From positions 16,793 to 80,792 of IMG/VR virus record IMGVR_UViG_3300034378_000186: DNA of 64,000 nt; one strand, written 5' to 3'. This stretch comes from a virus. Numbering within the stretch: the first letter of the stretch is position 1; each line of letters opens with the position of its first letter. Positions 10,584 through 59,753 of this stretch are shown here, piece by piece. The position numbers and the translations under genes were made by a program. The notes below the pieces were generated by a model. The model was not told the origin of the DNA. It saw only the letters and a program-made list of their open reading frames with translations, and did not search any database.

Positions 10584-13500
10584 ATGAAAAGAATATTATT
10601 TGGTATATTGTTGATTCTATTAGGGGTGTTAGTTAATGCCCAAGATCAACCAGTTTTGGCTTTACCAAACAGAGGTGCCCCTTCTAATTCTGATGTGTAT
10701 TATTTAAGTAGTGCAGCAGGGACAGATTATAAGATTCAACATTCTGATATCTGGAATGATATTTATCAAAATTATGTTTTGAGATTAACAGATACAGGGG
10801 TAATTGATACTTCCTATTATATAATGATAAACAACGGAACTAAAACTTATAAGGTGAAATATAAGGTATTGGTTTCAGATCTTGATACAGTATTGTATGC
10901 TTATTTTGCTGGATATGCTTATTTTGCTGGATATGCTTATAATGTAGATACTGCTCAGGATAATATGTTTGTAAAAGATACAATGTTTATAAATTATGGT
11001 AGGTTACTTGATATTAAAGATTCAATAGATGTTGGATATTATATTGAAAGTGATTTTGTATTAAGTGATAACTTTTTCACAAATGGGGATTTTAAATTTA
11101 ATGATTCTTCTTGGTGGAATGGAACAGGGAATCAGGTGTTTAAGATATATGATGAAAGGGCAAATTATTTTCAGGATGGTTCTCAAGGTTTTCAAACAAA
11201 TCAATTTTCATTAGTAGATATTGATATAACAAAAGAACATTATTTTAGTTTTGAAATGGGTGGGGTTTCAAATGATCCTTTGACTTTACAATTTTTGGAT
11301 AAAGATAACAATGTTTTATTTACTAAAGTTATTCCTACTGCTTATACAGGGATTTTTGATACAATTTTGACTGTGACTGCAGATATTGAAGTAATGAATA
11401 TTCAAGGGTTTTCAAGTCCTGGAGCAAGTTTTTGGTTTGATAATTTTTATTTAAGTGAAAGAAGTTATAAACCAATTCTGAAATATGATACAACGGTAGT
11501 TTTTGAAAATATTCAATTTCAAAATTTACGATTGGATGAATTATTATCAAGTAGGGTTGGATATTTAGGTGATGCAATAGTAAGGGATACGATATTTTCA
11601 AAATTAGATATTGGAGGATTTAAACCTATTATTCCTTTAAATGAATCAAATTTTGATTCAGTGGGATTGTGGGATGTGGCAGGAGGTATTATAAGTGGGG
11701 GTAAATTTCAGAATGTTGCAAATCCTCTTACTATTTATGCAAATTATCCTGTTGATTTACAAGCAGGAGATTCAGTATATGTTGAAATTTATTTTGATGT
11801 AAAAGATGGATTTGGAGGGGGAAGTATACAAGTAAGTTTTAATACAGATTCTTTAGATACTATTTTTATTCCAGATAATTGGCATACAAATTATAAATGG
11901 GTTACAAGATTTCATACTTTAAATTCTCCTTCTACTCAATTTTCTTTTTCAGGAGTAAGGGAAGAATCATCTATTATGAATTTAGGTATTGATAGAATTA
12001 TAGTTGGTAAATATGAACAGGGTGCTGTTAGAGATTTGGCTTTTGATAAACCAATTGGATTAAAAAATGTTATTGTTCATAGTGATCAAATTTCAAGTAT
12101 TGAGGCGGAAAAGGTTGATGGTAAAGTAGATAGTTCTTATTATTCAGATATTGCAGGAGAATTATTAAATGGCCTTAAAGATGATACAGTTTTTACAAAT
12201 TATATTTTCCCTTATCAATCTGGAACTTCTTTAGAAATTGGTCATGATACTACTGAAACTGAAGTTTTATTTTCTGATAAATTATTGTTAAAAGGAGATA
12301 GAACTTTAGGAGATACAACAATTCAATTTAAAGTTACTGAAATTGAAACTGATTATACTGGACTAGAGATGTATGGTTGGATCTATGAGAATTGGTCAGG
12401 GAATGATGATCTTCATAAGTTTTTTGAGTGGGATGGTTATTATCATACTCTGATGATTGGTCACGAGGGGAATGATAGACAGTACTTAGATGTATCGGAG
12501 TTTGACTTATTGATGGGTGGACAAGATAACTCAATAGATCTTGGTGGATATAGTATGAGCTTAGGTGGTAAATCTAATAATATAACTACTGGATATTATA
12601 GAATCTCTATAGGTGGTAATAGTAATTCACTTTCAGGATCAACTACTTTTGATGCAGGGGCGATTATAATCGGAGGTTATGATAATGACTTGAATGGGAA
12701 TTCTGAATCTCCAATAATCATAGGTGGTAATACCAATACTTTAGGGAATGGTAATGATTACTCCATGATTTTGAATGGAAAAGATAATACAATCTCTGGA
12801 GATTTTAATACTTATAATACTATCATATCAGGAGAAGGTAATATACTTAGTGGAACTTATAACATAGTAGGAGGTTATTATAATTCAATATCTGGTAATT
12901 ATAATATTTCTACGGGTGGTGGTAATTCACTTGGTAGTAATTGCGACAATTCAATAGCAGTAGGGGAATATGTCAATATTGATAATTCGTATATTGGTAG
13001 TGCAGGATTTGGAGAAGAGATATTTATAGACGGAGAAGGTAACCTTGTTTCAGGTTACTATAATAGTATTACCGCTGATTATTCAGCCATAGCAGGTGGT
13101 AGTGAATCGAGTATTAGTAGTTTTGGGTCTAATTGTTTTATTGGTGGAGGTTATGATGCCAGTATTCAAGGAGGGTCTAATTGTTTTATTGGTGGAGGTT
13201 ATGATGCCAGTATTCAAGGAGGTTCTGGTAATTTTATAATAGGAGGAGAGGAGTTGCAAGTTCAAAATTCTAATAGTAACTATTCAGGAGTGATAGGAGG
13301 TTATCAAAATGTTTTGGATGATTGTGAGAATTCAATAATACTTGGAGGACAGGGGAATAATATAGGTAATGGTACTTATGAAGCTTTTTTGGGAGGTGGT
13401 TATAATAATGATATTGGGGGTAGTTCAGGATCTAATAGATCTGTAATACTTGGGGGAGATGAAAATCAATTAAATGGCGGGGGAAAATCTGCTATGATTG

Positions 13501-14378
13501 CTACCGAATCAAGTATTTTCTCTAAAGGTAATTATTCTTTAATGGGGGCTACTTCTAATTCTGAAATGAGTTTTAATAATGGCGGCGGCGGTTGTATTAT
13601 ATTAGGAGGAGATTATAATTATATGGGGGCGTCAGGAACTTATGATATTTCAGGAGGGGTAATGTTAGGAGGAGATTCTAATTATTATGAGAACGGAAAT
13701 TATGGGGCAATAATTGGAGGATTAAATCATGTTATTGATTCAGGGCAAAGTATAATTTTATTAGGGGGTACAGATTTAATAGGTCATTCTAATAATACAA
13801 CAATTACTGGAAAATATAATAATCAAGGCCAATATTTAAGTGATAGTGTTTTGTTTGTGGTTGGTAATGGAACAGCTTTTGATATGAGATCAGATGTTTT
13901 TTGGGTAAATGAAAATGGTCATGGTTATATTAATGGTAAATTGAATTTTGGAGCTAAAGATTCTGCTAATATATATTTTCGTGAGGTGGGAGATGGAACA
14001 GATACTTTATATGTAAATTGTTATTCAGGGGTTGTAAAAATTGGGAATAATTCTTTGATTGTTGATCAATCAGGGAATGTTAATATATCTGGTAATTTAA
14101 CTGTAAATGGTACTACAATAGGTGTTGATACAAGTTCTTTTTCAGAAACGTTACCACAAATTAACGGATTAAGGTATAAACAGAAATCTTCAGGTATTAC
14201 TACAACTTTATGGGCAAGTCCTCTTGAGGGTGATTTGATAGTAATTTTTAACAGGGGTGGAGGAAGTAATACTATTAACGGTAATGGAAATAATATAGAA
14301 GGCAGTGCTACTACCTCTTTAAATAATGGGGAAACTCTTCATTTAAGATTTATTGATGGTGAATGGTTAATCGAATAA
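10584..14378 (+). CDS. Large fibre/adhesin-like protein with N-terminal signal peptide and Gly-Asn-rich beta-roll repeats
   Basis: MKRILFGILLILLGVLVNA-Q signal; many IGGxxN repeats; LFVVGNGT...RSD motif; C-terminal 83-aa domain shared with 15208-16674. Confidence 0.65.
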   Translation: MKRILFGILLILLGVLVNAQDQPVLALPNRGAPSNSDVYYLSSAAGTDYKIQHSDIWNDIYQNYVLRLTDTGVIDTSYYIMINNGTKTYKVKYKVLVSDLDTVLYAYFAGYAYFAGYAYNVDTAQDNMFVKDTMFINYGRLLDIKDSIDVGYYIESDFVLSDNFFTNGDFKFNDSSWWNGTGNQVFKIYDERANYFQDGSQGFQTNQFSLVDIDITKEHYFSFEMGGVSNDPLTLQFLDKDNNVLFTKVIPTAYTGIFDTILTVTADIEVMNIQGFSSPGASFWFDNFYLSERSYKPILKYDTTVVFENIQFQNLRLDELLSSRVGYLGDAIVRDTIFSKLDIGGFKPIIPLNESNFDSVGLWDVAGGIISGGKFQNVANPLTIYANYPVDLQAGDSVYVEIYFDVKDGFGGGSIQVSFNTDSLDTIFIPDNWHTNYKWVTRFHTLNSPSTQFSFSGVREESSIMNLGIDRIIVGKYEQGAVRDLAFDKPIGLKNVIVHSDQISSIEAEKVDGKVDSSYYSDIAGELLNGLKDDTVFTNYIFPYQSGTSLEIGHDTTETEVLFSDKLLLKGDRTLGDTTIQFKVTEIETDYTGLEMYGWIYENWSGNDDLHKFFEWDGYYHTLMIGHEGNDRQYLDVSEFDLLMGGQDNSIDLGGYSMSLGGKSNNITTGYYRISIGGNSNSLSGSTTFDAGAIIIGGYDNDLNGNSESPIIIGGNTNTLGNGNDYSMILNGKDNTISGDFNTYNTIISGEGNILSGTYNIVGGYYNSISGNYNISTGGGNSLGSNCDNSIAVGEYVNIDNSYIGSAGFGEEIFIDGEGNLVSGYYNSITADYSAIAGGSESSISSFGSNCFIGGGYDASIQGGSNCFIGGGYDASIQGGSGNFIIGGEELQVQNSNSNYSGVIGGYQNVLDDCENSIILGGQGNNIGNGTYEAFLGGGYNNDIGGSSGSNRSVILGGDENQLNGGGKSAMIATESSIFSKGNYSLMGATSNSEMSFNNGGGGCIILGGDYNYMGASGTYDISGGVMLGGDSNYYENGNYGAIIGGLNHVIDSGQSIILLGGTDLIGHSNNTTITGKYNNQGQYLSDSVLFVVGNGTAFDMRSDVFWVNENGHGYINGKLNFGAKDSANIYFREVGDGTDTLYVNCYSGVVKIGNNSLIVDQSGNVNISGNLTVNGTTIGVDTSSFSETLPQINGLRYKQKSSGITTTLWASPLEGDLIVIFNRGGGSNTINGNGNNIEGSATTSLNNGETLHLRFIDGEWLIE
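10896..10940 (+). repeat. 18-bp perfect tandem repeat x2.5 (YAYFAG YAYFAG YAY)
   Basis: TATGCTTATTTTGCTGGA repeated in frame. Confidence 0.9.
13125..13222 (+). repeat. 48-bp perfect tandem duplication (SNCFIGGGYDASIQGG x2)
   Basis: Identical 48-nt units at 13125-13172 and 13173-13220. Confidence 0.92.
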
Positions 14379-16722: not shown

Positions 16723-17289
16723 ATGAAATCAATTAAATTATTTATTATCGCATTAATTAGTTTGGTAACTTTTACAGTCGAAGCCCAAATGAGCGATAGT
16801 GCAATGGCTGTTTATGATTCTGCAGTTTGTCAGGATGCAATTAGTGATATTGGTAATCCTACATGTGCTAAATATGTAGATTATTTATATTATAATTGGA
16901 AAGGAGATGTAAATGATTTTGATTCTCTTGAACAAATTAATTTTTGTACAGTAACAGGTACTTTAGTAACTGTTTATGGTGCTGATACTGTTGCATTAAT
17001 TATTACATGTCAAATAACTCAGGGTACTCCTGCAAGATTATTTAATATGAGTTTTAGTAAAAATAAAAGGAATGTTATGAATTTTGCAGAATTATTTACT
17101 TATTTTATTGATTATTCACAAACAGGTTTAGATAAGGATTCTTTAATAGGAGAAAATGTTTATGGGTATGAGGTAGAGAATGGTAGAAAAAGAACAGGTA
17201 CATTAGTATATATAAATACTGAGGAAAAATATGGAGTAATTGAAAGAGGGAATAGAACCTACAAATGCAATTTATTTACTATCCACTAA
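16723..17289 (+). CDS. Hypothetical protein with signal peptide
   Basis: MKSIKLFIIALISLVTFTVEA-Q. Confidence 0.6.
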   Translation: MKSIKLFIIALISLVTFTVEAQMSDSAMAVYDSAVCQDAISDIGNPTCAKYVDYLYYNWKGDVNDFDSLEQINFCTVTGTLVTVYGADTVALIITCQITQGTPARLFNMSFSKNKRNVMNFAELFTYFIDYSQTGLDKDSLIGENVYGYEVENGRKRTGTLVYINTEEKYGVIERGNRTYKCNLFTIH

Positions 17290-17495: not shown

Positions 17496-17590
17496 AACCT
17501 CCTAAAAAAGGAAAAATAGTAACAGGGGTAACGTTATTTAATATTTTACTTATTGCTGCTGTAACGGTGATAGGAGGTTTATTTATATGA
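17492..17590 (+). CDS. Small single-TM protein whose last 8 codons (19609-19636) were displaced by TnpB element 1
   Basis: ATGA-coupled start; joining 17586 to 19609 gives MKPPKKGK...GGLFIERRVSDAV-stop (40 aa). Confidence 0.6.
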   Translation: MKPPKKGKIVTGVTLFNILLIAAVTVIGGLFI

Positions 17591-17695
17591 CGGAGCGTAA
17601 AACCAATTCATCGCTTTAGCGTGGATTGGATGTAAGCGACTTACTCTTCACTTACATTTTGTAATTTTGTAAAAGTTTAGACTATTTAATAATAT

Positions 17696-19603
17696 ATGCT
17701 TAAAGGATTAAAATATCGCATTTACCCAACCAACTCACAAAAAGAGTTAATAGCCAAACATATTGGTAGTAGTCGTTTTGTGTATAACCTTGCATTAGAA
17801 ACAAAAAATACAGCATATTTAGGTTCTAAACATAACTTTTCTCCTTTTGATTTAATTAAGCAACTATCTGAACTTAAAAAAGAATATCCTTGGCTTAAAG
17901 AGGTTAATAGCCAATCTTTACAGCAAGCTATCCAAAATATGGATATTGCTTTTAAGAAATTCTTTAAAGGGGCTGGTTTTCCTAAATTCAAGTCAAAGCA
18001 TAGAGGAAAACAATCTTTTTCTATTCCACAAAATGTAATAGTAGAAAATGAAAAGTTAATTATTCCTAAATTCAAGGAAGGAATCGAAATTGTTTTGCAC
18101 AGACCTATTGAAGGAACAATCAAAAGTGCAACTATTAGTATTACTTCAACAGGGAAATACTTTGTTTCAATATTAGTTGAAACCAGTAAAGAGAAACCAA
18201 GTAAAGCACCTATTAAAGAAAAAACAACTATTGGTATTAAGTTAGGCGTATTCCCAAATATGTTTTCTACAAATAATTTTTCCGTTAGCCCATTGGCTAA
18301 TAGACGATGCGGAACTTCCAGTTCCTCTACTGGCAGCAGTGCAACTCTCCCAAACAGCAATGATTTCTCCTGTTTCCTTGCTTCTTTGAATGACTTTCTT
18401 CTTGGAAGCCGCCCAAGCAGCTTGATGCAGTTTGGATATATGCTCGGCACTACGTTTTGCCCCCTTATTGGCTTTAGATATTTTTCTTCTTGTTTCAGCA
18501 GAGTGCGTTTTTCCAAAAAAGCCATTAAATTCTCCAACTCTGGTTTTAGCGCGGTTAGAAATAGCAGCACATTCGGATTGAGTTCTTTTTCTCCCCAAAG
18601 TGCTTCTATGGGGTACGGTGCAAATATTATAGCCGAATTTCTTTTCGTTACTCCTAAAGAAGGAAATCCAAAAGCATTCTCTATCTTGAAGGCTTGCGTA
18701 ATCCTCGACAACTTCGATGATTTGGAAATCAAAAGCATCCCATCCGTACTTAGCAATAGCCTTGTAAAATGGAAAGTTGCTTTGCAAGTTCCTTTTTCTT
18801 CTGTGTTCAGCAAATCTAAGTTTGATATTGACGGATTGCCCAATGTAGCATTTACCGTTGATTGTGTTTCTGAAGATGTAAACTCCAGATACAGATGGGA
18901 TGTCTTTGAACCTTGTTTGCATATTGCAAAGATACAAAAAGAAAACGATTTAAAACCTAATTGTTCAAAAAAAGACTTAGGAATAAAATCGTTTTTAGTT
19001 ACTTCTGATGGAGAAGAAATTGATAATCCCAAATACTTACGAAAAGCACAGAGTAGATTAAAATATGTACAACGTAAATATTCAAATAACAAAGGCAAGC
19101 GCACTAAGAAAAAACTTGCTAAGCTACACGAAAAAGTAGCTAACCAAAGAAAAGATTTTCTACATAAAACCTCAACTAAACTGATTCGTGAGAACCAAAC
19201 GATAGCCATTGAGGATTTAGCGGTTGCTAACATGGTCAAGAACCATAATCTTGCACAGGCAATTAGTGATGTTAGTTGGTCAACCTTTGTTTCAATGTTG
19301 GAATACAAAGCTGATTGGTATGGTAAAAATATCTTACAAATAGGACGTTTTGCACCATCATCAAAGACTTGTTCTTGCTGTGGGTATATCAATAAAGAAC
19401 TAACACTAAAAGACCGTGAATGGACTTGTCCTAAGTGTAATTCTGTACTTGACCGTGATGTGAATGCTGCTGTTAACATTAAATCATTTGCATTAAAAAA
19501 TATCTTATCTGGAACGGATAGGAAAACTCGGAACGAACTGCCTCGGTTACGAGGAGTGTTGACTTCCGAAGCCCAACCCATCGGCTCTGCCGTGGGTGGG
19601 TAG
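17696..19603 (+). CDS. tnpB: TnpB RNA-guided nuclease (390 aa native) with a 245-codon in-frame insertion splitting RuvC-I
   Basis: N-terminal KYRIYPT...RFVYN; TTIGI / DLGIK split; IAIEDL; CSCCG...CPKC zinc finger; DRDVNAA. Confidence 0.92.
   Translation: MLKGLKYRIYPTNSQKELIAKHIGSSRFVYNLALETKNTAYLGSKHNFSPFDLIKQLSELKKEYPWLKEVNSQSLQQAIQNMDIAFKKFFKGAGFPKFKSKHRGKQSFSIPQNVIVENEKLIIPKFKEGIEIVLHRPIEGTIKSATISITSTGKYFVSILVETSKEKPSKAPIKEKTTIGIKLGVFPNMFSTNNFSVSPLANRRCGTSSSSTGSSATLPNSNDFSCFLASLNDFLLGSRPSSLMQFGYMLGTTFCPLIGFRYFSSCFSRVRFSKKAIKFSNSGFSAVRNSSTFGLSSFSPQSASMGYGANIIAEFLFVTPKEGNPKAFSILKACVILDNFDDLEIKSIPSVLSNSLVKWKVALQVPFSSVFSKSKFDIDGLPNVAFTVDCVSEDVNSRYRWDVFEPCLHIAKIQKENDLKPNCSKKDLGIKSFLVTSDGEEIDNPKYLRKAQSRLKYVQRKYSNNKGKRTKKKLAKLHEKVANQRKDFLHKTSTKLIRENQTIAIEDLAVANMVKNHNLAQAISDVSWSTFVSMLEYKADWYGKNILQIGRFAPSSKTCSCCGYINKELTLKDREWTCPKCNSVLDRDVNAAVNIKSFALKNILSGTDRKTRNELPRLRGVLTSEAQPIGSAVGG
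18242..18922 (-). CDS. GIY-YIG homing endonuclease with NUMOD3-like and C-terminal HTH-like DNA-binding modules (ATG at 18922)
   Basis: GVYIFRNTINGKCYIGQS, LRFAEH, DRECFWI, GYN; FFGKTHSAETRRKIS; C-terminal VIQ...WESCTAAS...WEY. Confidence 0.92.
   Translation of the reverse strand: MQTRFKDIPSVSGVYIFRNTINGKCYIGQSVNIKLRFAEHRRKRNLQSNFPFYKAIAKYGWDAFDFQIIEVVEDYASLQDRECFWISFFRSNEKKFGYNICTVPHRSTLGRKRTQSECAAISNRAKTRVGEFNGFFGKTHSAETRRKISKANKGAKRSAEHISKLHQAAWAASKKKVIQRSKETGEIIAVWESCTAASRGTGSSASSISQWANGKIICRKHIWEYA
18927..18934 (-). promoter_or_regulatory. Bacteroidota -7 promoter element TATCTTTG for the GIY-YIG gene
   Basis: Matches TAnnTTTG, 4 nt upstream of ATG, inside the 735-bp insert. Confidence 0.7.
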
Positions 19604-19628
19604 TTCACTGAACGTAGGGTTTCAGATG
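19490..19628 (+). ncRNA. Predicted omegaRNA of element 1 (5' end approximate); guide TGAACGTAGGGTTTCAGATG (19609-19628)
   Basis: TnpB omegaRNAs overlap the tnpB 3' end and right end and take their guide from the flank; right-end hairpin and TCAC terminus seen. Confidence 0.65.
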
Positions 19629-38854: not shown

Positions 38855-39436
38855 ATGAAAATATATTATACAACATCAGTTGGAACAGATGAAGAACAGA
38901 AGAATGCAAAACTTTCTTTAGGAGGTTTTAGATCTTCTTCAGTGGTTCCTAATTTAAGAATAGGAAATCTTTTTGGGGATATATCTGAGTATACAATTCA
39001 GATAGATCGTGATCAATATATTGCCCTGATGATAAGAAATGAAACAGAGGCGGATATAACAAATCTAAAGCTACATTTTGAATATCCAATAGACGATGAA
39101 GATAATAATATTTCTGATACTTTATTTAAAATTGGAGCTGTTGAGCCTGGTGATGTTGATGGAGAAGAATATATTGAAAGATTACAAGATTTTTATTCAG
39201 CTCCTTATTCAGTAGATTTTCATGAGGCAGATGGAATTGCAAATCAGGTCCTTTTAGGGGATCTTGCAAATAATACTTCCTTTGGATTATTTTTTTGTAG
39301 ATCTTTAAAAAAAGATAAAATTTTGGAGGATTATCAAAATATGATTGAGAAGGATGAACCTGATAATTCTAATATTTATAGACAAAATGAACTACCTACA
39401 AAAGATGAAATCAAAATTGTTTTAAACTGGGATTAA
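38855..39436 (+). CDS. Hypothetical structural protein
   Basis: SLGGFRSSS-VPN...NLFGDIS; last gene of tail operon. Confidence 0.5.
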   Translation: MKIYYTTSVGTDEEQKNAKLSLGGFRSSSVVPNLRIGNLFGDISEYTIQIDRDQYIALMIRNETEADITNLKLHFEYPIDDEDNNISDTLFKIGAVEPGDVDGEEYIERLQDFYSAPYSVDFHEADGIANQVLLGDLANNTSFGLFFCRSLKKDKILEDYQNMIEKDEPDNSNIYRQNELPTKDEIKIVLNWD

Positions 39437-39446
39437 AAAAGGTAGT

Positions 39447-39484
39447 ATATAATTTTTATATGTGGGTTTTTTTATGTATATTTG
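39447..39484 (+). promoter_or_regulatory. Phage promoter: ATATAA-ttt-TTATAT palindrome + TATATTTG
   Basis: Same motif and spacing at 47941, 51777 and 59679. Confidence 0.75.
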
Positions 39485-39496
39485 CTGTTATAATCA

Positions 39497-40033
39497 GTGG
39501 GTTATAATAGTTTTTTTGTGATTGATGAATTTTTAAAATATTACGAGGGGATTTACAGGAATGCTACAAACATGAATATTGATGTTTTTAGGAATCCCAA
39601 AAATAGGAAACTTGTTAGTAATCTTCTGGAAAGATTAAATAATTTATACCCAAGCATAGATGGTAAATTTCTTTTTGATTTTATAATACTTCAATTTAAT
39701 CATTATGAAAATTTTATATTGGCAAGAGGTAAAAATCGTTTACAGCTTTCATGGTTGGTTGGGGATAAAGCAATAGAAAGGTGGAAAAATAAAAGTGAGA
39801 ATTGGAATTATTTTAATAGGGAGTTTTGCAAAAAATATAGGATTAAGGCTCCTGAAAAAAAATATCAGGTAAATGAAGAAGGTAGAAAAGAATTTAGAAG
39901 CAGAGAAAGGAAAAGATTTTATAACACTGAAAGGGGATTAATTCATTGTATGGAATTAGAATTATTTGAAAGTCTGAATAGTCAGTGTTTAGAATGTAAT
40001 TATAAGAATATTTGCAATGGAAAAAGTAATTGA
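39497..40033 (+). CDS. Hypothetical protein
   Basis: 178-aa ORF after promoter; C-terminal Cys cluster. Confidence 0.55.
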   Translation: MGYNSFFVIDEFLKYYEGIYRNATNMNIDVFRNPKNRKLVSNLLERLNNLYPSIDGKFLFDFIILQFNHYENFILARGKNRLQLSWLVGDKAIERWKNKSENWNYFNREFCKKYRIKAPEKKYQVNEEGRKEFRSRERKRFYNTERGLIHCMELELFESLNSQCLECNYKNICNGKSN

Positions 40034-40433
40034 TAAATGTTCTAAATGTGGAAATAAAAGGGTAATTGTTAATAAGAAATATTATTTGTGTGATGAATGT
40101 AATTACTTTAGACTCCATGGGGAAACGAAATATGATTCATTTCGTAGAAAACAGAGGGAACAGAATAAGAAGAGGAAGCATAAGAAAACCGGGGAATGGG
40201 AATTGTTCATGGAAATATGGGCAGAAAGAGAACATAAATGCCATAATTGTGGGATAAGAATTTTTGTACCAAAACCAATAAATTTTATGCATAAGAAAAG
40301 TAAAGGGGCTTCTCCAAGTTTAAGACTGAAAAAAAGTAATATAGAAATTGTTTGTAGGGATTGTCATTATGCGTATGATTTTCAGGGGATGGATAAGTAT
40401 AACGAAAGAAAAGATTTATATGACGGAGCGTAA
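40017..40433 (+). CDS. HNH/zinc-finger endonuclease-like protein
   Basis: CSKCG, CDEC, CHNCG...NFMHKKSKG...NIEIVCRDCHYAYD. Confidence 0.7.
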   Translation: MEKVIDKCSKCGNKRVIVNKKYYLCDECNYFRLHGETKYDSFRRKQREQNKKRKHKKTGEWELFMEIWAEREHKCHNCGIRIFVPKPINFMHKKSKGASPSLRLKKSNIEIVCRDCHYAYDFQGMDKYNERKDLYDGA

Positions 40434-40470
40434 AACCAATTCATCGCTTTAGCGTGGGTGGGTAATTCAC
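40420..40470 (+). mobile_element. 51-bp minimal IS200/IS605 derivative of family 1 (left end fused to right end)
   Basis: 40414-40457 identical to 17581-17624 (44 bp, including TTTAT); ends GGGTGGGTAATTCAC; removal restores DLYR-stop with TAATG coupling. Confidence 0.9.
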
Positions 40471-41040: not shown

Positions 41041-41259
41041 ATGGGAAATATTATAAAAGAAAATTTGAATCTAACAGGGATGGTAAAATTTCTGAATGAA
41101 AAATTTGGGAATAAAAAAACAGGAAAGAAATTTACTACTCAGGATGTTCAGCAATATATTGAATTAGGATCTCTTCCTAAATATCTTGGATTGTATGATA
41201 TTGAAAGGGTAAAAGGGATTCATTCAGTAAAATTATATAATATTATTAAAAGAAATTAA
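41041..41259 (+). CDS. Small putative DNA-binding protein
   Basis: 72 aa basic; FTTQDVQQYIELGSLP resembles an HTH/excisionase-like motif. Confidence 0.45.
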   Translation: MGNIIKENLNLTGMVKFLNEKFGNKKTGKKFTTQDVQQYIELGSLPKYLGLYDIERVKGIHSVKLYNIIKRN

Positions 41260-41305
41260 TATAAACTACCCATCGGCTAAAGACCGAATGGGTTTTAGAC
41301 AATAA

Positions 41306-42394
41306 CTAAGAATGCAAAGAGCAATACATAATCTGTCTTTCAGGCGTGTTTATAGCCGCCCCAAGCAAAGAGATAACCTTAGAAGCATTAAAATCTGCAT
41401 CAATGGTATCTACTTCACAATTTGTGTTGGTGCATTTAAACACCTTGTTGGTTCGTTTTCCAATATGTTTACAAGAGCTGCACGTCTGCGAAGTATAGGC
41501 AGGTGGTACAACGATGCATTTCACACCATTAAGCAAAGCTTTGTATTCAATATACTGTCTAAGCATAGAGAAATTCCATTTACCAAGTTTAGTCCGAAAC
41601 TTCTTGTTTCTTTTTTTACTTGTAAATCGGATTCCAGTAAGGTCTTCAATAGCGATTCCCTTGCCTTGCTCCTTAGCAGATTGAACAATAGATTTTGCGA
41701 TAGTGTGATTAACAATTTGGGCGTGCGTTTTCTCCCTTCCCGAAAGCCTTTTCAAAAGTCGTTTAGAACTTCTTGTGCATTTGGACTGGATAGAACTCCG
41801 AACCTTTTGACGTTTTTCCTTATACCTATTAAGGGAGTTGTTGGTGTGTTTCTCACCATCACTTGTTTCAACAATAGATGTGATGCCGAAATCCACTCCC
41901 GTAAATTCGGAAACATCTTTAATATCTACATCTGGAATATCAACACATTGAAACAAGAAAAATTTCCCTTTCCTGTAGATAAGGTCGGCCTCCCCTTTTA
42001 TGTATGGAAGATACTTTTTGTTGAAACATTTAAAAGGTATTTTTTGTCTGCCACCAATACACCATATAGAAACAATGTCTTTTTTGTAGGTAAGAATCCT
42101 ACTGTCATAAGTAATTGCTCCAAAAGGCTTGAAAACACGTTTTTTCTTCCTATCAAGTTTATAAGCATCGTTCACTTTTGCGATGGCACGAACAATTACT
42201 TGTGCAGAAAGATTAGAGTTTTCCTTGATTTGATGGTAAACAAGTTTATGTATTTTGAACTGATTAAAAACTTTGTTTTCCCAAGCTATATTAGAAATAG
42301 CGTTGCAACTTTTATTCACCGATTTAATGGTGTTAAGGAGCATCTGTTTATGTTCTTCCGTGGGTTCAAGTTTTATTTTAAGAGTCAAAACCAT
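41306..42394 (-). CDS. tnpB: TnpB RNA-guided nuclease, catalytic triad intact (ATG at 42394)
   Basis: LTLKIKLEP N-terminus; GVDFG, IAIEDL, AYTSQTCSSC, FKC...C, DADFNAS. Confidence 0.92.
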   Translation of the reverse strand: MVLTLKIKLEPTEEHKQMLLNTIKSVNKSCNAISNIAWENKVFNQFKIHKLVYHQIKENSNLSAQVIVRAIAKVNDAYKLDRKKKRVFKPFGAITYDSRILTYKKDIVSIWCIGGRQKIPFKCFNKKYLPYIKGEADLIYRKGKFFLFQCVDIPDVDIKDVSEFTGVDFGITSIVETSDGEKHTNNSLNRYKEKRQKVRSSIQSKCTRSSKRLLKRLSGREKTHAQIVNHTIAKSIVQSAKEQGKGIAIEDLTGIRFTSKKRNKKFRTKLGKWNFSMLRQYIEYKALLNGVKCIVVPPAYTSQTCSSCKHIGKRTNKVFKCTNTNCEVDTIDADFNASKVISLLGAAINTPERQIMYCSLHS

Positions 42395-42398
42395 AAGG

Positions 42399-42406
42399 CA
42401 AATATA
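42399..42406 (-). promoter_or_regulatory. Bacteroidota -7 element TATATTTG for tnpB2
   Basis: Matches TAnnTTTG, 4 nt before ATG. Confidence 0.7.
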
Positions 42407-42504
42407 CAAAATATTTCTATATTTGAAAATTATTATTTAACCAAAGGGAGAGCCACTTTCCTCCCATCGACACTTTGTGACCAATGGGTTTCCGTGGCAG
42501 TTTT

Positions 42505-43122
42505 ATGAAATTTGAGGCTAATTTTTTAACATTTGACCTGGAAACAGGGGGTTTAAAATCTGAAGAAAACCCTGTTTTGGAAGTTGCATTTTTTGCAATG
42601 GATAAAGATCTTAATGAGATCGATAGTTATAATAGTTTGATAAAACCTTATGGTAAACTAAAAATCACAGATGGTGCTTTAAAGGCCAATGGATTAAATT
42701 TAGAAACATTGGAAGAGAAAGGGAAAGAATGTAAAGAAGTAGCAGAAGATTTAGTTCAATTTTTTATAAAACATAAAAAAAGGAAAACATTACCTATTTT
42801 ATGTGGGCATAACATTGAACATTTTGATATTCCTTTTTTGGACCAATTTATGAATTTTTGTGGTAAAGATATTTCAAAGTTGGTTAATAATGATTTTATA
42901 ATTGACACATTATGGTGGAGTAGAATAAGATGGGTTGAATCCATTAATTATAAATTGGTAACCTGTTGTGATAATGCAGGGATAGAATTAATAAATGCTC
43001 ATAGGGCTGTTGCTGATACTAAAGCAAATCAAGAATTAGTTAGGTATTTTCTGAATAGTTTAAGATCTGGTCAATCATCAACAGTAATAGAAAAAAGATT
43101 TAGGGAAGAATTTGAATTTTAA
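42505..43122 (+). CDS. DEDDh 3'-5' exonuclease (DnaQ/epsilon-like)
   Basis: FDLETGG, CGHNIEHFDIPFL, IDTL, AHRAVADT. Confidence 0.9.
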   Translation: MKFEANFLTFDLETGGLKSEENPVLEVAFFAMDKDLNEIDSYNSLIKPYGKLKITDGALKANGLNLETLEEKGKECKEVAEDLVQFFIKHKKRKTLPILCGHNIEHFDIPFLDQFMNFCGKDISKLVNNDFIIDTLWWSRIRWVESINYKLVTCCDNAGIELINAHRAVADTKANQELVRYFLNSLRSGQSSTVIEKRFREEFEF

Positions 43123-43125
43123 TAT

Positions 43126-43176
43126 ATAAACTACCCATCGGCTAAAGACCGAATGGGTTTCCTTGCCGAAAATACT
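43126..43176 (-). mobile_element. 51-bp minimal IS200/IS605 derivative of family 2
   Basis: First 35 bp identical to 41261-41295; abuts ATGAA (TAM TTCAT on minus strand) of the terminase start. Confidence 0.88.
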
Positions 43177-44844
43177 ATGAATCAGGACGAATCAACTATA
43201 GCATTAACAAGAAAAGAATTGAGTAATATCCTGGAATATACTTATAATTTAATTGATTTTTTACCTGATGAAGCTTTAAGTGAATTATTAGAAGGGGATG
43301 ATAAGAATGTTGATAATTTGGTAGATGATATAATGAAAGCAATTCATGAGGTATTCCATTATAATAATCATACTATCAGGAATTTTGGAGGGTTGGAACA
43401 TTTTGAAAAAAGTTTTGATGATGGATTAAAAATACTTTCTTATAATTATTTTAAAACTACAATGCTACCTAATTTTGAGCAGGGATGGAGAAATCTTGAA
43501 TGGGGGAATTTAATTCAATTATTCCCTTGGGCTGCATTTTTAGCTGCTCGTGGTCATGGTAAATCATTTGAGTTTTGTTTTGCAGCTCCATTATGGAGAA
43601 TGTGGAGATATAGAAGGCCTGGATTTTTACAGAAGGATACGATTGATAATAAGAATTCAAAAGAAACTGTAATAATTACAAATGAATCAAAACTGGCAAG
43701 AAAACACATGGAAAAAGTTAATGAGGAAATCAGAATGAATGATTTGCTTTCCAGCGTTATGATACCAGATAAAATGACAGATCTTGGAAAAGATAAGATA
43801 ATAAGTAGATCTGGATCATCTTTAGAATTCAGAACGTATCAGGGATTTATAAGGGGTCTTCATGTTGGTTGTGTATTTGTGGATGACTTTTTAGATGAAA
43901 GCTGTTTATATTCTGAAGATCAGAGATTAAAATTTCATGAGATATTTTATGGGGCAATAAAATCAATTGTGGAACCATACGGATATTTGATTGTTTCTGG
44001 AACACCATTTCATGAAGAAGATTTATATGCAAAACTGAAAACAGATCCAATATTTAAGGTTTTTGAATATCCTGCTATTATGCCTGATGGAACTTTATTG
44101 GCTCCGGATAGATTCAATTACAAATTATTAATGGATCTGAAAAAATCTTTAGGTTCAATTGTATTTACAAGGGAATATTTGGTTAAGCCTGTTAGTGATA
44201 GTTCTTCATTGTTTCCATGGGAATTTCTTAATAAATCTTTTATTGGAATGGAAAATATCTCCCTGGTAGATAATATCGAATCTTTTCCTATTAAAATGAA
44301 AAGGGTGGTGATGGGGTGTGACTTTGCCATTTCTGGTAAAATAGGGGCTGATTACTCAGTTTTTTCAGTGTGGGGTATAGATAATGATAATAATTACTAT
44401 TTATTGCACGTATGGAGAAAACAGGGGGCTTCACATAGGGAACAGGTTGATGTTATAGTAAGATTAAATCAAATGTTTAAATGCAATAAGATTAAAGCTG
44501 AAAATAATGGATTTCAAAGGATTATTGCAGAACTGGTAAAAGAGAGAGGGGTTAGAAATATTGAACCTTTTGAAACTACAGCAAAAGTAAAGAAAAATTC
44601 ATACGAGGGATTACCTTCTTTGTCAGCCATGTTTGAAAGAGGAGAAATAAAGATACCATATAAAGACGGAAAAACCAGGGAGACAGCTTTATGGTTATGT
44701 GGGGAATTTAATTCGATAACGTTTTTAGAAGATACAGGTAAATTAGAAAGTGCAGGAGGGACAGATGATGGAGCAATGTCTACCTTTTTTGCAATAACAG
44801 AACTAAGGGAGAAAAAGTCCGGTTTTCGGGTTCATCATATTTAA
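43177..44844 (+). CDS. terL: Terminase large subunit (native ATG at 43177)
   Basis: AARGHGKS Walker A, VFVDD Walker B, SGTP, FTREYL, GCDFA...ADYS, DDGAMS. Confidence 0.92.
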   Translation: MNQDESTIALTRKELSNILEYTYNLIDFLPDEALSELLEGDDKNVDNLVDDIMKAIHEVFHYNNHTIRNFGGLEHFEKSFDDGLKILSYNYFKTTMLPNFEQGWRNLEWGNLIQLFPWAAFLAARGHGKSFEFCFAAPLWRMWRYRRPGFLQKDTIDNKNSKETVIITNESKLARKHMEKVNEEIRMNDLLSSVMIPDKMTDLGKDKIISRSGSSLEFRTYQGFIRGLHVGCVFVDDFLDESCLYSEDQRLKFHEIFYGAIKSIVEPYGYLIVSGTPFHEEDLYAKLKTDPIFKVFEYPAIMPDGTLLAPDRFNYKLLMDLKKSLGSIVFTREYLVKPVSDSSSLFPWEFLNKSFIGMENISLVDNIESFPIKMKRVVMGCDFAISGKIGADYSVFSVWGIDNDNNYYLLHVWRKQGASHREQVDVIVRLNQMFKCNKIKAENNGFQRIIAELVKERGVRNIEPFETTAKVKKNSYEGLPSLSAMFERGEIKIPYKDGKTRETALWLCGEFNSITFLEDTGKLESAGGTDDGAMSTFFAITELREKKSGFRVHHI

Positions 44845-47909: not shown

Positions 47910-47978
47910 ATATAAATTGCATTTTTTTCAAAAAAATGCCATATAATTTTTATATATAAAGAAAAATTAGTATATTTG
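47910..47978 (+). promoter_or_regulatory. Phage promoter: ATATAAATTG box + palindrome (47941-47955) + TATATTTG (47971-47978)
   Basis: Conserved motif and spacing across four intergenic regions. Confidence 0.75.
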
Positions 47979-48012
47979 TAATTGATAAGTCTAACAAATA
48001 AAAATTAAAATT

Positions 48013-51744: not shown

Positions 51745-51814
51745 ATATAAATTGAGGAAAATTTAAAAAAGATTGAATATAATTTTTATATGTGAAATAA
51801 TTCACTTAATTTTA
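51745..51814 (+). promoter_or_regulatory. Phage promoter variant: ATATAAATTG + palindrome (51777-51791) + TAATTTTA
   Basis: Same spacing as the other copies; -7 element has one mismatch. Confidence 0.6.
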
Positions 51815-54187: not shown

Positions 54188-54217
54188 AGGGTTGGGGGTT
54201 TCCATTCCCCCTTCCCT
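54188..54217 (+). terminator. Possible terminator/stabilising hairpin
   Basis: AGGGTTGGGGG-tttccatt-CCCCCTTCCCT, GC-rich in an AT-rich gap; weak T tract. Confidence 0.45.
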
Positions 54218-54233
54218 TCTTAAAATTAAATCT

Positions 54234-55271
54234 ATGAAAAATATTTTGGGATTACTATCAACAGATTGGCACCTTAAGGATGAAAATACAGAACTAATTA
54301 AAGATCTGATTATTCAAAAATGTAAAAAAGCCAAAGAATTAAAAATTAAAAATCTTTTCTGTTTGGGGGATGTTTTAAATAGTAGGATTGCCCAAAGACA
54401 AAAGGTGTTATTGGCTTTTAAAGAAATTTTGGATATAATAAATGATTATGGATTGGAATTATATGTAATCCCAGGTAATCATGATAAAACAAATTATTCA
54501 TCCTATAAATCATTCTTAAATCCTTACGAAGGTCATCCAGCCTTAAAATTAATGAGTGAGGGTGATAAATTGGATATTATAGAAGGGATAAGAATTCATT
54601 TTATGCCATACCTGGAGGAAAATATGTGGCTGGAAGAATTTAAACCTGATCTATTGTCAAATATAAAGAATGTTTTACTGACACACATGGCATTTGAGGG
54701 TAGTGTTAATAATGATGGAAGTCTTGTTAGTACTCCCTTAAAGCCAAAATTATTTAAGAAATTTGATTTGGTGTTATCAGGTCATTATCATGATGAACAA
54801 ACTTTGGCTCCAAATATGTATCATATTCCTTCAATTTGCCAGGGTAATTTTGGAGAAGATGAAGTAAAAGGATTCACAATATTGTATGATGATCTGACTT
54901 TTGAAATTGTAAAATCTGATTTCCCTATTTATAAAAAAATATCTATTGATATTAACAAAATATCATCAAATGAGATTGTAAAAATGGCTGAAAAAGAAAC
55001 CAAAAATCTAAAAGATAATATTAGGTTTGAGTTTTCAGGGGATGAGGCAAAATTGAAGAATATAGATAAAAATTTCCTGAATATGATGGGGGTGGATGTT
55101 AAGATCAAAATTGCTTCAGTTGAAATAAAGGAATCGATAAAAAAAGTTAATCTGGAAAAAATCAATAAATCCCAATTATTGGATGAATTTAAAGATTTTT
55201 GTGAACAGGAAAAATTGGATTATGAAGAAGGTGTTGAATTGTTAAATGTGAACTACCCACCCACGCCATAG
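54234..55271 (+). CDS. SbcD/Mre11-like nuclease; native last 14 aa replaced by a MITE-derived tail
   Basis: TDWH, LGDVL, GNHD, SGHYH; ATG at 54234. Confidence 0.88.
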   Translation: MKNILGLLSTDWHLKDENTELIKDLIIQKCKKAKELKIKNLFCLGDVLNSRIAQRQKVLLAFKEILDIINDYGLELYVIPGNHDKTNYSSYKSFLNPYEGHPALKLMSEGDKLDIIEGIRIHFMPYLEENMWLEEFKPDLLSNIKNVLLTHMAFEGSVNNDGSLVSTPLKPKLFKKFDLVLSGHYHDEQTLAPNMYHIPSICQGNFGEDEVKGFTILYDDLTFEIVKSDFPIYKKISIDINKISSNEIVKMAEKETKNLKDNIRFEFSGDEAKLKNIDKNFLNMMGVDVKIKIASVEIKESIKKVNLEKINKSQLLDEFKDFCEQEKLDYEEGVELLNVNYPPTP

Positions 55272-55365
55272 GCGATGGGTTGGGCTTCAAGGTTCATAGA
55301 CTTAACCAACGTTAACGCCTCCACTTGTTTTTATTTATACTCCGATTGCGTCCCAAAACCAGAGT
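55228..55365 (-). ncRNA. Predicted stand-alone omegaRNA; guide ATTTAACAATTCAACACCTT
   Basis: TATATTTG -7 element at 55370-55377 (minus) directly upstream of about 115 nt ending in the right-end hairpin. Confidence 0.55.
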
Positions 55366-55461
55366 TATACAAATATACAACAATTATTTCAAAATATCAA
55401 GCGGAAAAAGAGGTCGCTTACATCCAAACCACTAAAGATGGTTTGGTTTTACGCTTCATTT
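55248..55461 (-). mobile_element. 214-bp non-coding family-1 IS200/IS605 MITE: left end + promoter + omegaRNA-like scaffold + right end
   Basis: Minus strand: TTTAT|AAATGAAGCGTAAAACC...TTGGATGTAAGCGAC (like element 1 left end) and GAAGCCCAACCCATCGCCTATGGCGTGGGTGGGTAGTTCAC (like right end); removal restores the sbcD frame to TAG at 55504-55506. Confidence 0.9.
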
Positions 55462-55509
55462 ATAAAAGTAAAGATAAAAAGGATTGGAGATAACTTAAAA
55501 AATTAGATT

Positions 55510-59646: not shown

Positions 59647-59716
59647 ATATAAATTGCATTTTTATTGAAAAAACTCATATATAATTTTTATATGTTAAAT
59701 AATTTATATATATTTG
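59647..59716 (+). promoter_or_regulatory. Phage promoter: ATATAAATTG + palindrome (59679-59693) + TATATTTG (59709-59716)
   Basis: Conserved motif and spacing. Confidence 0.75.
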
Positions 59717-59753
59717 TATTGGGTATTAATTCTAACAATTAAAATATACAAAA

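Follow-up and report, generated by a model that had tools for sequence, protein, structure and literature searches.

In a 64,000-nt stretch of viral DNA (the window; positions 16,793 to 80,792 of IMG/VR record IMGVR_UViG_3300034378_000186), a TnpB transposon of the IS200/IS605 family, here termed element 2, carries opposite its tnpB gene (tnpB2) a full-length open reading frame (ORF) that ends on the start codon of the next phage gene, and most relatives in bacteria and phages, though not a minority that have lost it, keep the same frame open. Element 2 is inserted backwards, and from its sequence and those of its relatives we consider it probable, though well short of certain, that it acts as a translated spacer, preserving translational coupling and avoiding polarity. 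An earlier note, made from the letters of the window, had proposed that such elements use TTCAT, the reverse complement of ATGAA, as their transposon-adjacent motif (TAM), insert in front of start codons and may hand ribosomes to the downstream gene. Its coordinates were correct for element 2, which abuts the ATGAAA start of an exonuclease gene at 42505, and for a 51-bp mini element, which abuts the ATGAAT start of the terminase gene at 43177, and the 398-codon ORF at 41312-42508, antisense to tnpB2, does end at the TGA inside ATGA. When the comparison with relatives was run, the antisense frame proved open across the clade and to end at or next to the host start, and neither insertion at TTCAT regardless of starts nor a usually broken frame was found. 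The comparison drew on 21 relatives from viral contigs (65-79% amino acid identity) and 78 loci from species-representative genomes of many phyla (35-70% identity); antisense stops were counted in 58 genomic relatives, left ends were scored at 58 loci, and both ends were recognised in 47 loci.

The antisense frame is codon-aligned with tnpB, which means that any TTA, CTA or TCA codon in tnpB would close it. Our codon counts revealed 0 of these in tnpB2, against 19.8 expected from the codon usage of the phage (P(0) = 4e-12), in which TTA makes up 49% of leucine and TCA 26% of serine codons. All 21 viral relatives likewise had 0 stops in the tnpB-aligned frame, while their two remaining antisense frames contained 11-21 and 31-51, and among the 58 genomic relatives 33 had 0 stops and 16 had one. 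In 26 genes of the close clade (~790 leucine and ~560 TCN-serine codons), CTA was absent and TTA and TCA together came to about one or two per gene; as the gene bodies are free of stops, these residual codons probably lie in the C-terminal tail, in a conserved TCA GGT TTA just upstream of the ORF start. Other A-ending codons were common and normally used in the close clade, and distant TnpBs of another clade, with a G+C content of 0.25-0.35, carried 21-38 antisense stops. On these two grounds, general codon bias was discarded as an explanation for the open frame. A natural control for loss of the trait is provided by locus L033, a 56% relative with 34% G+C from a Saprospiraceae metagenome-assembled genome, which has 26 antisense stops and whose left end, after TTCAT at a gene start, is out of phase.

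The amino acid sequence of the frame was not conserved for its own sake. Antisense protein identity was 0.40 where TnpB identity was 0.63, and the observed value of 0.404 compares with 0.356 when synonymous codons were redrawn at random; the ratio of observed to expected codon identity dropped to 1.0-1.25 at 58-70% sense identity. The ORF at 41312-42508 had no Pfam match, and its start, an ATG conserved 47-56 nt from the right end in the close clade, was not conserved in distant relatives. There is thus no amino acid conservation beyond what TnpB imposes, and selection therefore acts on the absence of stops, that is, on translation itself or something tied to it. A functional antisense protein was rejected as a candidate, its amino acid identity being near the simulated level.

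The open frame continues through the left end. It was stop-free in the tnpB-aligned antisense frame in 38/58 loci, compared with 3/58 and 10/58 for the other two frames, and 20 of the distinct left-end lengths are 2 mod 3, the other classes holding 5 and 9. Judged from these sequences, the non-coding left end evolves like coding sequence. Among the 47 loci with both ends, the frame ended in an xTGA overlap with the ATG or GTG complementary to the target in 23 and within -4 to +4 nt of the host start in 29; it ended in TGATG or TAATG in 3, at 0, +1 or +4 nt in 3, 23-31 nt upstream in 6, and ran in frame into the next gene in 2. Translational coupling is most efficient at spacings of -4 to +3 nt (review PMC12548453). 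The earlier note had also pointed to an ATG in both left ends, in frame with the exonuclease (42484, 21 nt upstream) and with the terminase (43153, 24 nt upstream). Both are where it placed them, but the feature is not conserved, since just 10/47 loci have an in-frame ATG 21-27 nt upstream of the host gene. The CCCAT arm of a hairpin gives rise to this ATG, whose phase is explained by the conserved phase of left ends in general; we regard it as incidental.

Borders, target and insertion sites

The ends of element 2 were set by comparison with 75 relatives and by guide/cleavage-site covariation. Where a left end could be recognised, TTCAT, or TTCAC in a few relatives, immediately preceded it in nearly every case, bearing out the target that the earlier note had named, and nearly all of these loci shared the layout of TTCAT, N11-14 and a hairpin foot of the GGAAACCC type. 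The last base of the target covaried with the base before the left hairpin (TCAT with A, TCAC with G; G in 7/8 TTCAC-type elements), and at the right end the terminal base covaried with the base before the right hairpin (AAAG/TTAC in 25, AAAA/TTAT in 5, with 4 exceptions). Right ends of the family terminate in ...GGGTAGTTTA(C/T), i.e. ...TAGTTTA(C/T), which sets that of element 2 at 41261, and both covariations support these exact borders of the element. Predicted folding of the right-end hairpin was significant (z = -2.97). In an alignment of 16 relatives, the RuvC residues D168, E250 and D334 and the zinc-finger cysteines C305, C308, C321 and C326 were invariant.

Hairpins are subterminal at both ends, there are no terminal inverted repeats, the rebuilt empty sites are clean gene junctions, and no match to the Y1 transposase TnpA (PF01797) was found in the 80.8-kb parent record (estimated completeness 73%). 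Element 2 is a non-autonomous, TnpA-less IS200/IS605-family element made up of tnpB and a guide RNA. Its TnpB2 would use the target as TAM, and mobility would come via TnpA in trans or via homing. TTCAT is the published TAM of ISGst5 IscB, and TTTAT that of ISGst2 TnpB2 (Meers et al. 2023, bioRxiv 10.1101/2023.03.14.532601). For the last 180 nt, RNAalifold on 16 relatives gave 39 pairs, 18 of them with compensatory changes, a conserved fold as expected of a guide-RNA scaffold, which this region is predicted to be; no Rfam family matched the scaffold. In the published architecture, the guide-encoding sequence immediately flanks the end of the transposon on its outer side (PMC10691335).

Eight relatives (L016, L028, L048, L058, L073, L066, L074 and L086) follow TTCAC, CTCAC or GTCAC, and the change from A to G before their left hairpin matches. 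On the host strand these targets read GTGAA, GTGAG or GTGAC, that is, a GTG start overlapping TGA. Three of these eight TCAC-type loci (L058, L066 and L086) precede ORFs of 205-498 codons, although two are high in G+C, where long ORFs may arise by chance. Targets of the TCAC type may track host start-codon usage.

Empty sites were rebuilt at the 47 loci by in-silico removal of each element, and 637 other ATGAA sites in the same sequences served as background. The target ATG or GTG started an ORF of at least 50 codons in 35/47 rebuilt sites, compared with 27.8% of the background (p = 4e-11); under a strict criterion, in which it had to be the first possible start, the figures were 25/47 and 10.0% (p = 2e-13). 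The enrichment at starts that the earlier note had expected was thus present under both criteria. Most rebuilt sites were operon junctions at which the stop of a co-oriented upstream gene usually lay no more than a few bases from the start. The TGA within an ATGA or GTGA overlap provided that stop in 14 loci, and several more had adjacent stops. The right end reads RTAA on the host strand, and of the 14 overlap loci 10 regained a stop where it had been and 2 regained it one codon downstream. Exact-match searches of viral contigs for the two empty sites predicted in the window found none, and megablast of the element region against phage records gave no match. Because no phage relatives were found by way of the exonuclease gene, the empty sites are known from in-silico excision only.

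Translation through the element and other explanations

Element 2 is in reverse orientation within a phage operon, exactly at the junction where one gene stops and the next begins with its Met-Lys codons, so that phage mRNA passes through tnpB in the antisense direction. In our preferred reading, selection would keep the frame open because its translation matters and its product does not. As ribosomes passed over the 1.2-kb insert, the transcript would stay translated, leaving no long stretch of naked RNA to trigger Rho-type polarity or decay; the ribosomes would melt the left-end hairpin as well, and their termination would fall on the start codon itself, allowing re-initiation there. The RTAA of the right end returns a stop codon to upstream genes whose own stop had lain in an ATGA overlap. 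We infer the translation of the antisense frame, the re-initiation and the relief of polarity from the sequence patterns described above.

Several observations weigh against this reading. The ORF starts ~50 nt past the upstream stop, behind the right-end hairpin, and coupling is already weak at ~50 nt (PMC12548453), so that ribosome entry would need a separate initiation. Predicted RNA structure in the exonuclease-start region is ordinary (z = -0.28), and the idea that a hairpin occludes this start was dropped for the same reason. Twelve of the 47 elements are not at gene starts, yet most of them keep the frame open; in 10/47 relatives the frame closes well away from the host gene's start, and L033, itself located at a gene start, has its frame broken throughout, which means that the frame is not indispensable. 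The enrichment at starts may moreover come from the survival of harmless insertions, i.e. from selection after insertion and not from targeting.

Part of the evidence would also fit a frame that merely covers read-through RNA with ribosomes against Rho termination and decay, in which case the ATGA end would be a by-product of the TCA in the target and the downstream gene would initiate by itself. The whole 1.2 kb is kept open, though a short terminal ORF would suffice for coupling, and the six loci in which the frame ends 23-31 nt before the start are still open over the rest. We nevertheless consider this explanation unlikely, as a stop anywhere in the left end would serve it equally, whereas left-end phase is conserved so that the frame meets the target TGA (23/47 loci, 20 different lengths), and where the phase is lost a junction stop is often present (TGATG, TAATG or TAGATG). 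A true overlapping gene for a functional protein, e.g. a regulator or a transposition cofactor, could account for a long ORF kept across phyla and for the ATG conserved in the close clade. Such a gene appears very improbable given the absence of a Pfam match, an identity close to the simulated one, a codon identity at conserved residues that approaches expectation and a start that is not kept in distant relatives; moreover, the antisense frame that stays open in another TnpB clade of the window is a different one, as expected if openness rather than a product is what counts.

The pattern might also involve no adaptation, with compact genomes offering no harmless TTCAT sites other than starts and with an unrelated codon bias giving rise to the open frame. 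Ten percent of the background ATGAA sites already resemble gene starts, and purifying selection against intragenic insertions must contribute. The bias is, however, limited to the three codons that mirror stops and to one frame, reaches into the non-coding left end with its phase conserved, and is seen neither in L033 nor in other TnpB clades of equal base composition, which leaves this account with very little probability indeed. It is scarcely credible that the ATGs at 42484 and 43153 provide new in-frame starts, giving the downstream proteins an extension of 7-8 residues: they occur in both window copies, and 10/47 relatives have one at 21-27 nt, but the other 37/47 do not, and the codon comes from the CCCAT hairpin arm, takes its frame from the left-end phase and lies inside a hairpin stem.

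The phage operon and a second TnpB family

The coordinates of element 2 and its neighbours are listed in Table 1. The window has a G+C content of 31.6%, nearly all of its long ORFs lie on the plus strand, and it had no Rfam match at gathering scores. By tblastn the terminase was closest to phages of Bacteroides thetaiotaomicron (DAC16 and others; 38% identity), with alignments that begin ~10 residues past the Met at 43177 and fit ATG 43177 and ATG 43153 alike. Over its first 35 nt the mini element repeats the right end of element 2 without a mismatch (repeat D16), and it finishes in a tail like those of the left ends in relatives including L009 and L014; the right-end hairpin of element 2 has only two copies in the whole record. 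With a slash at the point of removal, the empty sites in the window read ...AAT TAA T/ATGAAA for element 2 and ...TAA TAT/ATGAAT for the mini element.

Table 1. Features of element 2 and the adjoining phage genes (window coordinates)
Feature	Position	Strand	Description
Element 2	41261..42504	-	1,244 bp; left end, tnpB, guide-RNA region, right end; no target duplication
tnpB2	42394..41306	-	362 aa; Pfam Cas12f1-like_TNB (2.9e-18) and OrfB_IS605
Antisense ORF	41312..42508	+	398 codons; codon-aligned with tnpB2; runs through left end; stop TGA 42506-42508 inside ATGA
Left end	42395..42504	-	110 nt; subterminal hairpin ~42462-42489
TATATTTG box, Bacteroidota type	complement of 42399-42406		just 5' of tnpB2
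Right end	41261..41305	-	hairpin 41270-41296; terminus ...GGGTAGTTTAT; plus strand reads ATAAAC
Predicted guide-RNA (omega RNA) scaffold	41261..41440	-	overlaps tnpB 3' end and right end
Predicted guide-encoding flank	41241..41260	-	complement of 3' end of upstream 72-aa gene; length assumed from other TnpB systems
Upstream phage ORF	41041..41259	+	72 aa; TAA stop 1 nt before element 2
ATGAA	42505..42509	+	exonuclease start codon plus two bases; complement of TTCAT target/TAM
RNase T/DnaQ-like 3'-5' exonuclease gene	42505..43122	+	205 aa; Pfam RNase_T (6e-16)
Mini element	43126..43176	-	51 bp; gene-less; one hairpin; directly 5' of ATGAAT
Large terminase gene	43177..44844	+	Pfam Terminase_6C; alternative in-frame ATG 43153 within mini element

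A second TnpB family is represented by element 1, an IS605-type element on the plus strand (17587-19608; target TTTAT at 17582-17586; right end ...GGGTAGTTCAC). It has an antisense ORF of 628 codons (17722-19608) in a different, shifted frame, which contains 0-6 stops in close relatives (61-84% identity) and 8-24 in distant low-G+C relatives; this suggests separate origins for the trait in the two families. The RuvC-I motif of its protein, TnpB1, is interrupted between IGI and DLGIK by a 735-nt (245-codon) cassette (18239-18973), which is placed exactly in frame and is missing from relatives. The cassette carries a GIY-YIG/NUMOD3 homing endonuclease on the minus strand (18937-18242), and three of the six frames are open over it, namely those of the endonuclease, of TnpB1 (codon-aligned antisense to the endonuclease) and of the long antisense ORF. 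The cassette matched no group I intron model, Rfam gave just a chance microRNA match, and a search for relatives of the endonuclease gave one distant match.

Gene-less members of the element 1 family were also present in the window. A 51-bp mini copy with one hairpin (40420-40470), equal in length to the mini element of the element 2 family, follows TTTAT and supplies the stop of the ORF at 40017-40433; the rebuilt site is a TAATG overlap with the next gene (ATG 40478). A derivative of ~200 bp lies in reverse orientation at approximately 55247-55465, and the ORF at 54192-55271 ends 8 codons inside its right end; when rebuilt, this ORF is 19 codons longer and reaches to just before ATG 55510. 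Elsewhere, intergenic blocks of the form TATATAATTTTTATATGT...TATATTTG recur at 39432-39484, 47922-47987, 51762-51814 and 59660-59725. Repeated TATATAAT...TATATTTG blocks resemble Bacteroidota promoters, and the recurrent TATATAATTTTTATATGT...TATATTTG blocks probably serve as phage promoters, of the TAnnTTTG type of Bacteroidota. The 1,264-aa ORF at 10584-14378 contains a perfect tandem duplication of 48 bp (13125-13220).

Known systems and significance

TnpB elements are ancestors of Cas12, and their genes are among the most abundant in prokaryotes. IStrons, in which IS607 or IS605 elements are fused to group I introns, bear TnpB and lower the cost to the host gene they interrupt, as element 2 would; they leave the RNA by splicing, whereas element 2 remains part of the transcript, matched no intron model and appears to be crossed by translating ribosomes. 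With the TnpB-only elements of the IS200/IS605 family (IS1341-type; OMEGA, e.g. ISDra2 and the ISGst elements of Meers et al. 2023), element 2 shares a TnpB with RuvC and zinc-finger motifs, subterminal hairpins, insertion 3' of a pentanucleotide without duplication, and a guide scaffold, predicted in element 2, over the 3' end of the gene and the right end. The 51-bp mini element is gene-less like PATEs and the MITE-like derivatives of IS200/IS605, with the hairpin of its family and docking at TTCAT. It differs from typical PATEs in being much shorter, in having a single hairpin (a right-end hairpin fused to a left-end tail) and in lacking a guide-RNA scaffold.

In the IS200/IS605 literature searched, we found no account of a full-length stop-free antisense frame, an in-phase left end, start-codon docking or a stop contributed by the right end. 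The trait was not found described for TnpB in that literature, and its nearest precedent is the MIRUs, mobile repeats that insert at start codons with an internal ORF coupled to the host gene at -4 nt and are held to minimise the effect on expression (PMC12548453). Both have an ORF in host orientation that ends in a -4 overlap with the host start (42505-42508 in element 2; exact in 23/47 relatives). MIRUs are, however, short, gene-less, associated with no known nuclease and unrelated in sequence, whereas element 2 holds a frame of 400 codons over the other strand of a working gene, is a 1.2-kb transposon and belongs to a family found in many phyla and in phages. By analogy, element 2 would work like a MIRU without being a member of that group; common descent is not expected, the element being IS605-type.

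The wider proposal, for which we judge the chances to be about even, is that a large and widespread TnpB clade of bacteria and phages consists of "operon-transparent" selfish elements. These would live in essential operons without polar effects by means of a target complementary to start codons (TTCAT, or TTCAC for GTG starts), a right end that reads as a stop and a mirror frame free of stops over the full length of the element; a second TnpB clade, using another frame, and the GIY-YIG cassette of the window may each have come to the same solution independently. If this holds, it would serve as a warning for annotation, as the longer, antisense ORF is not the gene, and it would suggest a rule by which cargo might be designed for insertion into operons so that polar effects are avoided. 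The combination of missing TTA, CTA and TCA codons with an in-phase left end would provide a signature that can be mapped over the TnpB tree. The tolerance of such elements between essential phage genes would be explained, and the clade would represent a third way for TnpB elements to be harmless, beside the splicing of IStrons and landing between genes, in which the element is built for ribosomes to read through its opposite strand.

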